Shown here: positions 54,960-64,000 of the stretch, in pieces | How the letters are laid out: each line of letters begins with the position of its first letter | How positions within the stretch are numbered: the stretch's first letter is position 1 | DNA from: an uncultured Planctomycetaceae bacterium | Lineage (GTDB): Bacteria > Planctomycetota > Planctomycetia > Planctomycetales > Planctomycetaceae | Direction: 5' to 3' | DNA length: 64,000 nucleotides | Assembly (NCBI GenBank): GCA_963815195.1 | Contig: CAWFGE010000023.1 | Location: 416,001 to 480,000, forward strand | Program-made: the position numbers and the translations under genes | Notes under the pieces: model-generated | The model's database searches: none | The model's input: only the letters and a program-made list of their open reading frames with translations | What the model was told of the DNA's origin: nothing

Positions 54960-56210
54960 TTAAGACAGGCCGGAATCGTCGAGGTTGGGAAGGTTGCCGT
55001 TGTCCCAATCGTTTTCGAGCGAGAACACCGAATCGCCTCCGGTCAGGTCTTCGCCGGTGCGGTTGAGGACGGCGGGGCAGACCACGGGCGATTTCTTGAC
55101 TTCGATGGTGAGCGTCGGCCATTCCTCGGCGGGAGTCATGAGTTCGATCCCCCGCTCGCTGAGCAGCACCGAATCCCCCAACACCGCCGGCCCCACGGAG
55201 GGATGCCAATAGAGTGCCATATGGGAATCGAGCCGGAACGTGCCGCCCGGCACCAGGGGGACTTCCGCCGGGCTGTAGCCGATGACCTCGGCCTGCGAAG
55301 CCAACTGCCATTCGCTGGCGTGGCCGAACTTCTCATAAATCCGAGCCACCCGCTCCCAGACGTCTTTGAGTTCCCAACCCGGCAGGGAGAAGTGCATGCC
55401 GGTGGCGTGAATCAGCGCGGCCGTCTGGTGGGCGGTTTGAATTTCCGCCGGGATCGAATCGAAGCACACGGTGCGCGAGGCCCCCACGCAAATTCCCCAC
55501 CGCCGGCCGATCGCGGAAATCGCGCAGGTGCGGTCGATCGGACGCCCGTCGAACGACCAATGCCGATACCGACCGCGCCGGCCTTCCGCGACCACCTGGA
55601 TCAATTCGGGGATGATGCGGTGCTTCATCATGCGGTGCGCGACTTCGGCGGCGACTTCCGCTTCGGTCGCTCCGCGGGGAAACCGCCGGGCGGTGGCTTC
55701 GACGGCATGCGCGACCGCTTTGCCCATCTCCCGCATCCGCGCGCATTCCAGTTCGGTCAGCGGCAGCCGGAGCTCCGCGAGTTCAGAAGAGACGTCGGTC
55801 ACCCCCGCCAGCGGAAAATCGCCCGCGACGTTTCGGCCGCGGACAATGTCTCCCATCAACTGCTGCCGGGGCTGATGCCAGGGCCGTTCCTTGAGTTGAA
55901 ACCCCAGGCCCGGCAATTCGTGATCGAACAACAGCGGCGAGTTGACGTTGTCCGTCACCAGCACCCGCGCGTCGGGCGTGATGAAAATCGCCGCCGCGCT
56001 TTGCGAGGAACCGCCCCGCGAGTTGTCGCCGCCCGCCGTAAACCAGGCGAAGTTCGCCGGCTGTTGGAGCAGAAGGGCATCGTAGCCGGTCCGCTCCAGA
56101 AACTCCGCCACAATCCGTTGCTTGGCGTCGACATCGCCCGCGCGGTCGGGATTCCGCCGCGCCGGGATCTCGGCTTCGGATTTGGAATGAGTCAGCGAAA
56201 CGGTTGACAT
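54960..56210 (-). CDS. M24 (creatinase/aminopeptidase P-like) fold protein
   Basis: ALLLQQPANFAWFTAGG N-domain, LRLPLTELE, GATEAEVAA, ASRTVCF. Confidence 0.8.
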   Translation of the reverse strand: MSTVSLTHSKSEAEIPARRNPDRAGDVDAKQRIVAEFLERTGYDALLLQQPANFAWFTAGGDNSRGGSSQSAAAIFITPDARVLVTDNVNSPLLFDHELPGLGFQLKERPWHQPRQQLMGDIVRGRNVAGDFPLAGVTDVSSELAELRLPLTELECARMREMGKAVAHAVEATARRFPRGATEAEVAAEVAHRMMKHRIIPELIQVVAEGRRGRYRHWSFDGRPIDRTCAISAIGRRWGICVGASRTVCFDSIPAEIQTAHQTAALIHATGMHFSLPGWELKDVWERVARIYEKFGHASEWQLASQAEVIGYSPAEVPLVPGGTFRLDSHMALYWHPSVGPAVLGDSVLLSERGIELMTPAEEWPTLTIEVKKSPVVCPAVLNRTGEDLTGGDSVFSLENDWDNGNLPNLDDSGLS

Positions 56211-56372
56211 GAGCAATCCTCGATGGTGGCCCGACGGTCAGCAATAAAGGAACTCCGGAAACCAAGCGTTCTCTTGTGAGACAATAACCGTCGCACTACT
56301 TTAAGTTTACCACGCCGCCCACCACAACCAAGCACTTCCGTCAAAAACTTTCGCGCCCAAGGGACCCTCCCA

Positions 56373-57249: not shown

Positions 57250-57723
57250 ATGGCACCGAAACCCGTTCTGGCCAAAAACATCATGGTCACGAAACTCGTG
57301 ACGCTTTCGCCGGACATGGATGCGTTTGAAGCGATCGACCTCCTCCTCAAGTACCGCATTTCCGGAGCCCCGGTGGTCGATTCGGAGCGGAACTACCTCG
57401 GCGTGTTTTCCGAACGCTGTTGCATGAGCTTTCTGGTGGAGGGGGCCTATCAACAGTTGCCCTCGATCCAGGTTTATGCCTACATGGACACCGAGGCGTT
57501 GACCATCGACGAGGACATGGACCTGTTGAGCATCGCGCAGATTTTCATCAACACCCACGCCCGCCGGCTGCCCGTGCTCAGGGAGGGAAAACTCGTCGGC
57601 CAAATCAGCCGCCGGGATGTGCTGAGCGCGATTCATGCGATGTGCGCGTTCGCGAGCAACGAAGAGTCCGCGCTGTTGTATCTGAGTTCCCTCGTCGAAC
57701 GCCACGAAGCTCCGATCGCCTAG
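57250..57723 (+). CDS. CBS domain pair protein
   Basis: ISGAPVVD...GVFSE, RRLPVLREGKLVGQISRRDVL; GAGGAG RBS. Confidence 0.9.
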   Translation: MAPKPVLAKNIMVTKLVTLSPDMDAFEAIDLLLKYRISGAPVVDSERNYLGVFSERCCMSFLVEGAYQQLPSIQVYAYMDTEALTIDEDMDLLSIAQIFINTHARRLPVLREGKLVGQISRRDVLSAIHAMCAFASNEESALLYLSSLVERHEAPIA

Positions 57724-57752: not shown

Positions 57753-60744
57753 CTATGTCACGGCGGGTTCATTTCGCGCGCGGAGGGCGGCGTAGAGGAA
57801 CTCGTCGATCGCTCCTTTCCAGAGTTCGTTGATATTGTTCGCCGTCACCCCAGTGCGGGCGTCGCGGACCGAAGGCCTGGGCCGCAGCGTGTATTTGCGG
57901 ATGATGTCTTCCACCTGCACGGCTTCCTGCGATTCGGGATCCTCGCCGCCGGCCTCGAGCATTTGCCGATAGGCGAGTTCCGAATGCAATAAGTCTTCCA
58001 CGAGCGGGGCGGCCTCTTCGGGAGAAAGATCGCTCGTCGCCGAGATGCTGGTGGCGGACGGGCGGTGCGTGGCCGTCACCTTGGATCGGTAGCGTTTGCA
58101 CCGGAGACCCCGGCCGTGCGTTTTTTGCTTTTCGAGGGAAACCTCGGACGGCGGGATGTCCGAATCGTCGCTGTCGGCCACCGGCAGCACCCGGACTTTG
58201 ACGAACTTCGACTTCTTCGCGTGCTTGGGCGTCCGCCCGTAAACCATCTCATGCATCCCCGCTTCGCCGCGGAGCATCCCGAAGATCGCCACGCCTTCGA
58301 CCAACAGCGTCAGCTGCCGCGTCTGCTTGGGCGAGAAGAGTTCCTCATCGATAATCTTCGCCTCGAAACCTTTGAGCTGCGCCCAATGGATGTACATGTC
58401 AGCGACGTTTCCCACGAGATCGTCCGGGGCATCGTCATCGACGGTCGAAATCGCCACGAACGCATCGCTGCGGTCCAGTTCGCTTTGACACTCCAGGCTG
58501 AACCGCACGAGGTCGGCGTGCTGTTGGCTGTGGGCCGCCTTCTCCGCGACGGCCGCGAGCTTGTCTGCGTCGCCTTGGCTCTTCGCCGACTCAAACTGCC
58601 GCACCAATTCCTCCGTGCGCTTCCGCACGCGGGCGACGGCTTCGAGCAGGCGTTCCAGCCGATAGATTTCCCCCAGCACGTCGCGGGCTGCTTCGGGATC
58701 GTCCCAGAAATCGACCTCGGTCGTCCGATGCAAGAGGTCGGTCTTTTGCTGCTCGAGCTTGCGGTCGGCACATTGCTGCTCCAGGTTCGCGATCGCGGTT
58801 TGCAGGAGGGTGATGCGTTCTTCGATCTGGCCGGGCTTGAGCTTGCTCTTGGTGCCGTGGATCGGATCGACGACCTGCACGCCCTTGGCGATGGATTCCT
58901 GTTTTCGGCTCAGGCGGTCCTGCACGATCCGCACCGTGATCCCGTTCCCCGCCGGCAACAAACGCAACAGCGACTGCCGGTTTTCGCCGGTCATATGCAC
59001 AATCTGCCGGGCGATGGGCAGGAGCGCAAATTTCTCGACGGCCCGCTTTAAGGGTCTGGCTCCATAGATCGGACTGAAACCTTCGCGGACGAGAATGTCG
59101 ATCACGCCGGGGTCCACATCGACCCGCAATTCCCGCCGGGTGATGCCGCTGCGGAGAAGCACCTGCCCCAGTTCCCGCTGGGCCAGAATCCGCACGTGCT
59201 CGCGCTCCAAAGGCCTGAAGGAAACAATGCGGTCGATGCGGTTCAAAAACTCCGGCCGGAAGAAACTTTCCATCGCCCGCACCGATTCCTCCTGCAGGCT
59301 GTTTTCGGGCGGCGTATGGAAGCCCAGGGGCGGAGCATCGATCAAATCGCTGCCCAGGTTCGAGGTCATAATGATGATCGTCTGCGTGAAGTTCGTGGTC
59401 CGGCCCGCGGGATCGGACAGCCGCCCGTCGTCGAACACCTGCAAAAGAAGATCGAAAATATTGCTATGGGCTTTTTCGATCTCATCCAACAGGATCACCG
59501 AGAACGGTTGCTGGCGAACCCGGCTGAGCAGGCTGCCCATGTGGAGCGGCGAATCCGCCCGCGCCGGGGCTGCCGATGAATTTCTCGAACGAGTGAAAAT
59601 CTTTGAACTCGGACATGTCGAAGCGGATCATGCGGTCGCTCGAGCCGAAGATGAACTCCGCGAGCGCTTTCGCGAGTTCCGTCTTCCCCACGCCCGTCGG
59701 CCCGACGAAAAACAGCACGCCCATTGGCTTTTCGGGATCGGTCAGGCCGGCTTTGATGAGCGTGATCAAATCGATCACCGATTCCACCGCCTGCGGCTGG
59801 CCGATGACTCGCGACTCGAAAAACTGTCGGACCTCGGGGAGCTTGAGCGGTTGCGAATCGTCCAACAACCGTCCCGGAATGCCGGTGAAGGATTCCAGCG
59901 TCTGCACCACGTCTTCGTGCTGGATTTCCGTCTCGAATTCCGCCGGCAGCCGTTCTCCGTTGGTGGCGGCGGCGGTGTGGTTCAATTTCAAATTGACGAG
60001 TTGCTCGAGGAGTTTGATCGCTCCGCCGGGCGCAGCGAGGCCGGGGAAATAGAGTTCGCCGAAGTCCAGAATCGCGGTCAGCGTGTTTTCCGGGAAGATC
60101 AGCTTGCGGCCGGATTCCAACAGGGCCCGCTCGGCGATGGCGTCGGCGGAGCGGCGAACGATCTGGCGGACGTCCTGCTCGGACGGTTCCTCGATGCGGA
60201 ACACCGTGAAGAGCTTGTTGAACGAAGGATGGCGTTCGATCCCGCTGCGGAAGGAATCCGGCGTGCATTCGCCGATCAGCGTCACGTCGCCGTTCTCGAC
60301 GAACGACGCCAGGAACGCGGCCATGTTCTCGTCCGACTTGGAATGCTTCCCCGCGTCGGGGAGTTGATGGATGTCGGTGAAATACACGGCGATCGACAAC
60401 GGCCGCTGGGCGAAGCCGGCCAGTTCCTGCACGCGGGTCTGCCATTCGCCGATGTACGAGGTGCCGGCCATCAACATGGAGGTCGAGGTCTCGAGCACGA
60501 GCCAGGGTTTTCGTTCCCGCTGAGCGACCCGGCGGAAGAGTTCGTACAAGATGGCCGACTTCCCGCCACCCGATGGGCCGACCAATAAAAACGAATTGTG
60601 CTTGGCGTGGTCGAGGTGGCGTTCGAGGAGTTCAAGCTCCGCATCGCGAAAATAAGCCCGCGGCCCGCGCGAATCCTGCAAACGGGTCGAGAGCACGTTT
60701 CCATAAGGTTCCAGCGTGCGGATCAGATCGGGATCGAAAGACAT
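57753..60744 (-). CDS. Clp/Hsp100 double-AAA ATPase fused to a release-factor-2-like (PCRF + RF-1) domain lacking GGQ; frameshift near 59560
   Basis: NBD1 GPSGGGKS; NBD2 GPTGVGKTELAKALA, FDMSEF, LLDEIEKAH, FRPEFLNRID, YGARPLKR; C-terminal DFWDDP, MYIHWA..KGF, GEAGMH, IRKYTL.P...VRDARTG. Confidence 0.85.
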
Positions 60745-60910
60745 GGCGGGAAGAGTCAAGGGGCAAAGGCCACAGAGGAGCAAAGACCACAAAGTGACAA
60801 ACGGGAAGCGATCGAACAACACCGAATGAGTATATCACATCGAATGTTTGGCCGCGTGTCATTGCAAAAACCGCCCAACCGCGGAGAATGGCAGAAATTG
60901 CCCCCTTAAC

Positions 60911-63303: not shown

Positions 63304-63510
63304 TTTTTCGTACAGAGCGGGTTTTCGGGGATTTCGCTCATCCGAACCGGGCCGGTTTGCGTTCTCTGAACGACTTTTCCCCAAATTTCAGGGGATTATC
63401 GGCCTTCAGACCCTCATATCCGGCCAAGGAATGAGAAAACTCCCGCGGATTTCGGTGAGGAACCGGGAATAATCCGGCCCCCTTGCGGGTCCTACTTGTT
63501 AGGAAGGACT

Positions 63511-64000
63511 ATGGACAACGGCAAACGCTCTGCGAAGTGTCCCACTCTGCCGGAATTGGTGGACGTTTATTACGAACGTCTGTACCGATTCGCCTACCGG
63601 CTGAGCGGGTCCGCGGCGGATGCCGAGGATTTGACCCAACAAACGTTTCTCAGCGCCCAGACGAATCTTCACCAACTCCGCGAACCCGAACACGCCAAGT
63701 CCTGGATGTTCACCATTTTGCGGAATACCTATTTGAAAGGACGCCGAGCCCGAAAAACGGCGGACGTGGTTTCGCTGGAAAAGACTCCGGAACCGTCGGA
63801 AACGACGGACGAAGCCGCGCATTTGCGGATGGAGGAACTTCAGTCGGTCTTGGACGAGTTGCCAGACGAGTTCCGCGAACCACTCGTCTTGTTCTATTTT
63901 CAGGAGTTCAGTTATAAAGAAATTGCCGAGCTGTTGGAGGTGCCCCTGGGCACGGTGATGAGCCGGCTGGCCCGTGGGAAGCAGCATCTCCGCAAACGCC
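63511..64000 (+). CDS. ECF sigma-70 factor (RpoE/SigW-like), 3'-truncated by window edge; missing from the ORF track
   Basis: Manual translation: YYERLYRFAYRLSGSAADAEDLTQQTFL...SWMFTILRN...SYKEIAELLEVPLGTVMSRLARG. Confidence 0.92.
   Translation, partial: MDNGKRSAKCPTLPELVDVYYERLYRFAYRLSGSAADAEDLTQQTFLSAQTNLHQLREPEHAKSWMFTILRNTYLKGRRARKTADVVSLEKTPEPSETTDEAAHLRMEELQSVLDELPDEFREPLVLFYFQEFSYKEIAELLEVPLGTVMSRLARGKQHLRKR

Follow-up and report, generated by a model that had tools for sequence, protein, structure and literature searches.

A conserved and apparently undescribed bacterial fusion of a Clp/Hsp100-type ATPase with a release factor 2 body that has lost the GGQ and SPF motifs

The minus strand of a 64,000-nucleotide (nt) window from an uncultured Planctomycetaceae bacterium (assembly GCA_963815195.1, contig CAWFGE010000023.1, positions 416,001 to 480,000) holds a gene, here called the Clp-RF gene, in which a Clp/Hsp100-type ATPase is joined to a C-terminal module that corresponds to the whole of release factor 2 (RF2, the product of prfB). 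The order of the domains in the protein is a first AAA+ module (D1), a second AAA+ module (D2, matched by AAA_2), ClpB_D2-small, a linker and the RF2-like module. A first-pass annotation of this DNA had described an N-domain-less Clp/Hsp100 ATPase that carries a GGQ-less and SPF-less RF2 body, and this anatomy holds across about 70 clusters of relatives by sequence, profile and fold. The Clp-RF design is conserved and apparently undescribed, and the family combines an Hsp100-type ATPase that has a new accessory module with a new bacterial pseudo-release factor. With regard to function, we suggest, at a probability of roughly 0.45, that the protein is a ribosome-directed and possibly ClpP-coupled AAA+ machine for which the pseudo-RF2 acts as the targeting module.

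The assignment of the C-terminal module to RF2 is based on sequence, profile and structure comparisons. In a phmmer search of the last 371 residues against the PDB sequences, residues 48-364 of the module aligned with residues 35-358 of the 359 residues of Escherichia coli RF2 (E = 7.9e-23), and RF1 was matched at 4e-9. The prfB model TIGR00020 covered positions 2-352 of 353 in the relatives P0005, P0007 and L030 with scores of 113-131 bits (cut-off 370), compared with 44-57 bits for the RF1 models. An AlphaFold model of the module, built with 64 aligned sequences, reached a predicted local distance difference test score (pLDDT) of 93.2 and a predicted template modelling score (pTM) of 0.90, and its top Foldseek matches were all RF2 (E between 3.6e-22 and 5e-22), the highest TM-score (0.66) being that to the free closed form 1gqe; the TM-scores to ribosome-bound open forms of RF2 were about 0.45. 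To judge from the alignments, the colinearity with the whole of RF2, which had initially been read from the letters of the sequence, is far beyond chance, and the comparison of the predicted fold with RF2, which had been proposed as a check, gave the expected result. The outcome for the Pfam profiles was divided: the anticipated matches to PCRF, AAA_2 and ClpB_D2-small were obtained, whereas RF-1 (PF00472) matched neither this protein at E ≤ 1 nor this locus in a genome-wide scan. Because the Pfam RF-1 model gives no match, domain 3 can be identified solely from the alignment with full-length RF2 and from the fold. A look-up of the module in the ESM Atlas returned PCRF-containing fragment clusters below 0.9, including one labelled 'ClpB_D2-small/PCRF', and adds nothing to these data.

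To compare the functional motifs, the genome's own RF2, in which SPF and GGQ are both present, was added to an alignment of 63 family members. The first-pass annotation had noted that the catalytic GGQ loop reads GRGLR and that the SPF region is degenerate, and it had called for a survey of GGQ loss among homologues; both observations extend to the family as a whole, neither GGQ nor SPF being present in any of the 63 members. The pattern GxG[LIVR]R with a basic stretch behind it occurs in about 35 members, domain 3 is wholly absent in eight (P0066, P0074, P0080, P0081 and P0083-P0086), and the region of the GWG-type switch loop is variable, with the GWG motif lost in every member examined. The domain-4 motif VRRYTLxP..KDxRTG is retained across the family, and the residues of the module that are invariant in the family (W55, W162, G192, G204, H206, R324, D336 and G352) are core positions of RF2, suggesting that the RF2 body is under purifying selection. 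Judged by its motifs, the module is a complete copy of RF2 that is dead for catalysis and for decoding. In the genome-wide scan the RF-1 model matched three other genes, i.e. RF1, RF2 and a 158-residue open frame (contig C12:129980-130354, RF-1 domain with 66.5 bits) that is probably an ArfB-type rescue factor, and on this assignment RF1 and RF2 are accompanied by a small protein with a GGQ domain in a genome that also encodes the dead fusion.

The motifs of the ATPase rings were counted over the 63 aligned members and compared with ClpB, ClpA and ClpC sequences. In agreement with the initial description of two AAA+ modules and no Clp N-domain, the Pfam models AAA, AAA_2 and ClpB_D2-small matched and Clp_N (PF02861) gave no match at E ≤ 1; the start of the protein corresponds to the linker in front of D1 of ClpB, and an N-domain is hence absent. 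An M-domain is also lacking, the family rows being gapped over the M-domain columns of the ClpB- and ClpC-named rows, and the D1 and D2 matches are spaced by about 75 residues as compared with about 180 in ClpB. The Walker-B glutamate of D1 is found in none of the 63 members, in which the aspartate is followed by Ile, Leu, Val or Phe; the segment equivalent to the D2 pore loop is variable and contains an aromatic residue in six members, none of them aligned; and the sensor-2 motif GAR is present in all 63. Because D1 is without its catalytic glutamate and D2 without an aromatic pore loop, the label 'unfoldase' that the protein had been given is doubtful as stated, and ClpP-coupled degradation is likewise uncertain. 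The initial description had overlooked a hydrophobic-Gly-Phe loop, which by its alignment points to ClpP docking: its PLGF aligns with SLGF of the ClpC-named rows and with IGL in the ClpA segment of the BAP chimera, and the ClpB-named rows are without it. A predicted complex of D2 (residues 300-590 of P0005, with alignment) and two copies of the genome's intact ClpP (score 0.02, mark 0.32) speaks neither for nor against binding.

Compared with the known Clp proteins, the family resembles ClpC and ClpA in its two AAA+ rings, its D2-small domain, its conserved D2 Walker A, Walker B and sensor-2 motifs and the hydrophobic-Gly-Phe at the ClpP-docking position, and some source records indeed name relatives 'ClpC'. 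It differs from both in that it has no Clp_N domain, UVR or M-domain, D1 Walker-B glutamate or D2 GYVG and in that it adds the C-terminal RF2-like module of about 350 residues. The best D2 sequence matches are to ClpB/Hsp104 (P0005 against E. coli ClpB constructs, E = 3.6e-89); however, ClpB is characterised by an N-domain, a long M-domain and the absence of a Gly-Phe loop, and the family is the opposite on all three counts. The NCBIfam scores of P0005 are far under the cut-offs for ClpB (367 vs 1232), ClpA (344 vs 993), TssH (287 vs 885), ClpK (283 vs 1900) and ClpG (273 vs 1900). These comparisons suggest an ATPase that would work most like ClpC or ClpA but that, for each named Clp class, lacks several of the features by which the class is defined.

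On another contig (C15:713928-724315) the genome has three tandem paralogues (L003, L004 and L002, of 832, 859 and 690 residues) that share the atypical Clp-like core, with a degenerate D1, no GYVG and the Gly-Phe loop, and no Pfam domain past D2-small. The C-terminus of L003 has an ExGxH-like stretch, and an hhalign comparison of its C-terminal 363 residues with the family profile (probability 0.57%, E = 0.1) gave no supported RF-like module.

In the deposited sequence the gene is divided between two overlapping open reading frames (ORFs) on the minus strand, ORF1 (59482..60822, 446 residues) and ORF2 (57753..59540, 595 residues), the latter being +1 relative to the former. Because the aligned relatives begin at MSFDPD, we place the true start at the ATG at 60744 and not at the upstream GTG, and this position coincides exactly with the end coordinate in the first-pass annotation. 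The single frameshift and the protein of about 1000 residues proposed there are likewise in accordance with the joined ORFs, which give 997 residues, the length of the relative P0002, and every peptide that had been quoted is present in the ORF2 translation (Table 1). Pfam divides the domains between the two frames in a corresponding manner: ORF1 contains AAA (residues 79-186, 42.9 bits) and the first 57 positions of AAA_2 (50.3 bits), and ORF2 contains the remainder of AAA_2 (profile positions 65-165, 103.4 bits), ClpB_D2-small and PCRF.

At the frame break the window reads FIGSPGA in the first frame (59560-59580) and ...ARADSPLHMGS in the second, and the aligned relatives, all of them unbroken at the junction, have FIGS-(5 residues)-DSPLxMGS there. 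Contigs from four public metagenome runs were compared with the window over 59000-60100. A 297-nt contig of run X1 (depth 3.9), which covers 59353-59647, has CG inserted behind 59559 and 0 other differences; the insertion restores FIGSPGARADSPLHMGS, with the length found in relatives (P0004 reads GSPGARADSPLQM). In this way a repair of the indel from reads-type data, as had been recommended, was obtained from one environmental contig that supplies the two bases. Because this otherwise identical contig carries the missing CG, the break, on the evidence of these sequences, most likely reflects an error of the assembly or a variant of the strain and not a property of the gene. Alternatively, a real 2-bp deletion could have made the gene a true pseudogene in this genome, with only the relatives being functional, a possibility that concerns this copy alone and not the role of the family and that is compatible with the other readings. 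The deposited sequence is out of frame at 59559/59560, and the contig that restores the frame is single, has a depth of only 3.9 and is metagenomic, so that it may represent another strain. Given that the break is the only one, with no other stop or decay over 2992 nt, that the identity to intact relatives is 82-84% on both sides of it, and that a housekeeping clpP copy in the same assembly is also frame-split, suggesting assembly indels, we consider it unlikely that the gene is a true pseudogene. The clpP copy in question, the second in the assembly, is split between two frames inside GKR..LPNSRIMIHQP (contig C13:548600-550500; L038 165-836 and 233-496, minus strand), and the upstream clpP copy of the same genome (L038 1092-1829) is intact. 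Programmed +1 frameshifting as in prfB was also considered and is unlikely, since there is no stop codon at the site, the relatives are all in frame and the environmental contig has two extra bases.

Table 1. Positions, in the window, of the Clp-RF gene, its parts and motifs, and the genes around it
Feature	Position	Strand	Basis or remark
Whole Clp-RF gene	57753..60744	minus	Two frames; with the 2 absent bases 2994 nt = 997 residues + stop
D1 Walker A GPSGGGKS	60556..60579	minus	Lys in 60/63; remaining 3 rows gapped
D1 pore loop AGTSYIGEW, aromatic kept	60442..60468	minus	Aligns to ClpB AGAKYRGEF; aromatic 57/63
D1 degenerate Walker B VYFTDIH	60367..60387	minus	Asp kept, catalytic Glu replaced by Ile; aligned to FIDELH of ClpB/ClpC rows
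D2 Walker A GPTGVGKT	59680..59703	minus	Gly, Pro, Thr, Gly, Gly, Lys, Thr each 63/63; Val 58/63
Frame break	59559..59560		2-nt deficit in GCGCGG run; environmental contig has CG inserted
D2 pore-loop equivalent GSPGA/RADSPLH	59541..59574	minus	Non-aromatic, in place of GYVG; holds the frame break; aligned to APPGYVGYEE of ClpB/ClpC
D2 Walker B ILLDEIEKAH, intact	59466..59495	minus	Asp-Glu 63/63
PLGFH loop	59316..59330	minus	Hydrophobic-Gly-Phe at position of ClpA/ClpC ClpP-docking loop; Gly 63/63, Phe 62/63
ClpB_D2-small	58995..59210	minus	PF10431, 38.8 bits, ORF2 residues 111-182; sensor-2 GARPLKR at 59043-59063
Linker, D2-small to RF module	58809..58994	minus	Beta-hairpins and a low-confidence stretch; strands 592-607 and 622-635 in P0005 model; pLDDT <50 at 610-617
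RF2-like module, domains 1-4	57777..58808	minus	Colinear with whole RF2; phmmer, TIGR00020, AlphaFold, Foldseek
PCRF	58224..58754	minus	PF03462, E 4.3e-15, 56.5 bits (cut-off 24); ORF2 263-439; profile 2-180/194
Quoted peptide DFWDDP	58695-58712	minus	ORF2 translation
Quoted peptide MYIHWAQ	58377-58397	minus	ORF2 translation
Quoted peptide GEAGMHEMV	58242-58268	minus	ORF2 translation
GRTPKH in place of SPF	58221..58238	minus	TPK opposite SPF; recognition loop shortened; SPF 0/63
Quoted peptide VKVRVLP	58182-58202	minus	ORF2 translation
GRGLR in place of GGQ catalytic loop	58101..58115	minus	Alignments; GGQ 0/63; also a quoted peptide (ORF2 translation)
Quoted peptide KVTATHRPS	58056-58082	minus	ORF2 translation
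IRKYTLRPRPSVRDARTG, best-kept RF2 motif, domain 4	57849..57902	minus	Cf. ARNYVLHPEQYVKDTRTG of the genome's own RF2; Arg, Asp, Gly invariant; quoted as IRKYTL...DARTG (ORF2 translation)
M24-peptidase-like protein	54960-56216	minus	Neighbour
CBS-pair protein	57250-57723	plus	Neighbour
Alpha/beta-hydrolase, 738 residues	61087-63303	plus	Neighbour; S9/AXE1/glucuronyl-esterase-like
Sigma factor of ECF type	63496-63999	plus	Neighbour; runs off the window

In a search with the 595-residue ORF, 70 of the 119 non-self clusters listed have PF03462 together with AAA_2 and ClpB_D2-small. The PCRF-bearing relatives are mostly 930-1030 residues long, their identity ranges from 83% down to about 33%, and the sources annotate them as 'AAA family ATPase', 'ClpC' or 'release factor' and assign them to Thalassoroseus pseudoceratinae (the organism of P0007), Pirellulaceae and Pirellulales (Planctomycetota), Verrucomicrobiales, Polyangia and Haliangiales. 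The two AAA+ modules and ClpB_D2-small were also found in the loci of 10 relatives. In a sample of 400 other genomes of the phylum of the window, searched at a threshold of E ≤ 1e-30, 18 matched, 17 of them in open frames of 979-1285 residues; the remaining match, in a frame of 382 residues, probably represents normal RF2. No match was obtained in the 20 genomes that belong to the same taxonomic family as the window. Given the 17 long-frame matches in 400 genomes and none in these 20, we regard the gene as conserved but sporadic. A search of genome contigs with patterns from the AAA+ part yielded 602 candidate stretches, none of which was confirmed against the RF module, and these were not used.

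Several relatives (L030, L032, L033, L034, L037, P0064 and P0076) have HEAT_2 or PBS-lyase-HEAT repeats on the N-terminal side of the AAA-AAA core. Relatives without an RF module share this HEAT-AAA-AAA core (about 984-1004 residues), and the proposal that their HEAT repeats are a C-terminal replacement of the RF module was dropped because the repeats are N-terminal there too. This architecture bears on the possibility that the RF2-like module is an internal structural or regulatory domain without an external target, which would cap or gate the hexamer, promote its oligomerisation or plug it in auto-inhibition, with clients being chosen elsewhere, e.g. by the N-terminal HEAT repeats of some members. 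Clients could in fact be bound by the HEAT_2 repeats, which are present in five of the 10 relatives' loci (1176-1266 residues when combined with the RF2-like module), the same core occurs in RF-less relatives, and the module is predicted in a compact closed form. However, the protein of the window and many relatives have no N-terminal domain, leaving the RF module as their sole accessory part, and the full-length model of P0005 (pLDDT 87.9, with confident domains) shows no confident packing of the module on the rings, the arrangement being of low confidence (pTM 0.60) and the linker at 610-617 low as well. A purely internal function is, in our opinion, rather improbable. In P0005, which is 84% identical to the protein of the window, the last 25 or so residues (about 975-998; WKGRWTNSSMPRCEPG...) depart from the family ending LDEFLYA and have a pLDDT below 50, which looks like a frame error of the record.

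Because plus-strand genes flank it on both sides, the Clp-RF gene looks monocistronic. No neighbour is conserved among the 10 relatives' loci or shared between them and the flanks of the window; in the relative L028 a gene for a peptidase S9 lies at a distance of two genes, a weak link to the hydrolase of the window. The first-pass annotation had also raised the idea of a decoy in stress or anti-phage responses. In that scenario a phage or toxin factor directed against release factors would be caught by the dead RF2 as a mimic of RF2 and would then be destroyed by the ATPase. Such a function would fit the sporadic distribution of the gene and the HNH, Uma2 or HTH-S24 genes near two relatives. 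It finds no support in the defence-related searches, in which PADLOC yielded generic AAA_2-domain matches alone (DolB and PDC-M37B) and the phage and plasmid collections contained ordinary prfB-level matches of 24-28% identity and no family member, nor in the gene neighbourhoods, which have no conserved defence component, and we regard it as highly improbable.

Combining the data on the module with those on the rings, we suggest, in line with the non-hydrolytic ribosome-binding adaptor proposed in the first-pass annotation, that the pseudo-RF2 keeps a body that would fit the ribosomal A site and that it would dock a D2-driven hexamer on ribosomes. The ribosomes would most plausibly be stalled or vacant, and the machine would rearrange the complex there or extract a bound polypeptide. 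The A site is the most economical target because the complete RF2 body is conserved, and the loss of SPF and GGQ suggests that binding would occur without stop-codon reading or peptide release. If the Gly-Phe loop docks ClpP as in ClpC and ClpA, the polypeptide could be handed over for degradation. To our knowledge, the characterised RF-derived proteins other than plant PrfB3, i.e. RF1/2, ArfB, PrfH, ICT1 and Pelota, all act on ribosomes.

Several observations weigh against a ribosome-directed machine. The elements by which RF2 is coupled to the decoding centre and the peptidyl-transferase centre are all gone: the module has neither SPF nor GGQ, its GWG switch loop is lost and its His/Thr recognition loop is shortened. 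In addition, the arginine after the conserved histidine (GVHR in RF2) is a glutamate in most members. The eight members without domain 3 indicate that a reach to the peptidyl-transferase centre is not essential to the family. On the ATPase side, neither ring looks, by its motifs, like a canonical threading motor. In known Hsp100 proteins the C-terminal (D2) end, where the RF module sits, is the exit face and not the entry face. Moreover, no conserved neighbour gene points to translation, the gene is sporadic, with no match in the 20 genomes of the same taxonomic family, and plant PrfB3, a dead RF2, is described as working as an mRNA-binding protein (PMC5897788).

PrfB3 also provides the precedent for what we see as the main rival explanation, i.e. 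that the dead RF2 body was reused away from the ribosome as an RNA- or protein-binding adaptor unrelated to the A site and that the ATPase acts on an mRNP, an RNA-bound protein or another client. By its description, PrfB3 is an RF2 paralogue that has lost SPF and GGQ, no longer terminates translation and stabilises petB mRNA (PMC5897788). That the termination-specific motifs have all been lost, switch loop included, and that domain 3 is dispensable in eight of the 63 members would be in line with such a reuse, and the domain-3 tip of the closer members has the conserved basic pattern GxG[LIVR]R[CV]xR[YF][KR]S, which could bind RNA. However, the family keeps a four-domain body that includes domain 1 and has an invariant core over three phyla, which exceeds the needs of a simple RNA-binding surface, and the module is not basic overall; its median isoelectric point is 6.2 and that of RF2 from the same genome 5.1, a result that does not favor one reading over another. 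On balance a non-ribosomal reuse appears somewhat unlikely to us, and we favor the ribosome-directed machine.

Relative to known systems, the module is closest to RF2 itself, with which it is colinear over four domains and has the same fold, with an RF2 score well above that for RF1 and a PCRF match that passes its cut-off; it differs in the lack of SPF, GGQ and GWG, in the shorter recognition loop and in the fusion to an ATPase, and the genome keeps a normal RF2 elsewhere. PrfB3 differs in turn from the Clp-RF family in being, as described, a stand-alone plastid protein of land plants that binds the petB 3' untranslated region and has no ATPase (PMC5897788). ArfB and PrfH are, according to the available text of a survey of RF evolution (PMC6514570), RF paralogues that are likewise used outside normal termination. 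Unlike the Clp-RF proteins, both are small and stand-alone and keep the catalytic glutamine, and ArfB is without a codon-recognition domain, whereas the Clp-RF family keeps domains 1, 2 and 4 and loses catalysis. In the Vms1-Cdc48 and Dom34(Pelota)-ABCE1 pairs an RF-like protein in the A site of a stalled ribosome is combined with an ATPase, and in the same text Dom34 is described as being without the catalytic glutamine and Vms1 as having a Cdc48-binding motif (PMC6514570); the likeness is one of analogy and not of homology. These eukaryotic and archaeal systems have the unrelated aeRF1 fold and consist of separate polypeptides, and ABCE1 lies outside the AAA+ proteins.

Full-text literature searches yielded no account of a Clp-RF fusion. 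The survey of RF evolution lists, in its available text, RF1, RF2, ArfB, PrfH, ICT1, C12orf65 and MRPS35, and 'clp' has 0 occurrences in that text, the RF-family supplement of which lay outside the search and might mention such an architecture (PMC6514570); the term 'release factor' has 0 occurrences in the available text of PMC7159879.

In archaea and eukaryotes, ribosome rescue starts from RF-like proteins that have lost catalysis (Pelota/Dom34), and eukaryotic quality control pairs an RF-like protein with a two-ring AAA+ motor, as in the case of Vms1 with Cdc48. In the literature searched, no bacterial protein has been described that joins a catalysis-less release factor with an AAA+ motor, and the only other example that we found of a release factor turned pseudo-enzyme is plant PrfB3. 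Even if its function is non-ribosomal, the combination of an inactive D1 that has a pore-loop tyrosine, an active D2 without an aromatic pore loop and a ClpP-type docking loop will be of interest to AAA+ specialists. If the protein is ribosome-directed, the fusion of a dead RF2 with a Clp ATPase would be a new route of rescue or quality control and a natural tool for parking on the A site without peptide release. By analogy, and with clearly less confidence than in the ribosome-directed machine as such, we put forward the tentative possibility that the fusion is a single-polypeptide bacterial counterpart of Dom34-ABCE1 or Vms1-Cdc48, which would occupy the A site without release while a ClpP-docked hexamer extracts and degrades the nascent chain or pries the ribosome apart. 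If this is true, Planctomycetota, Verrucomicrobiota and Myxococcota would possess a further, hitherto unrecognised bacterial route for ribosome rescue or quality control.

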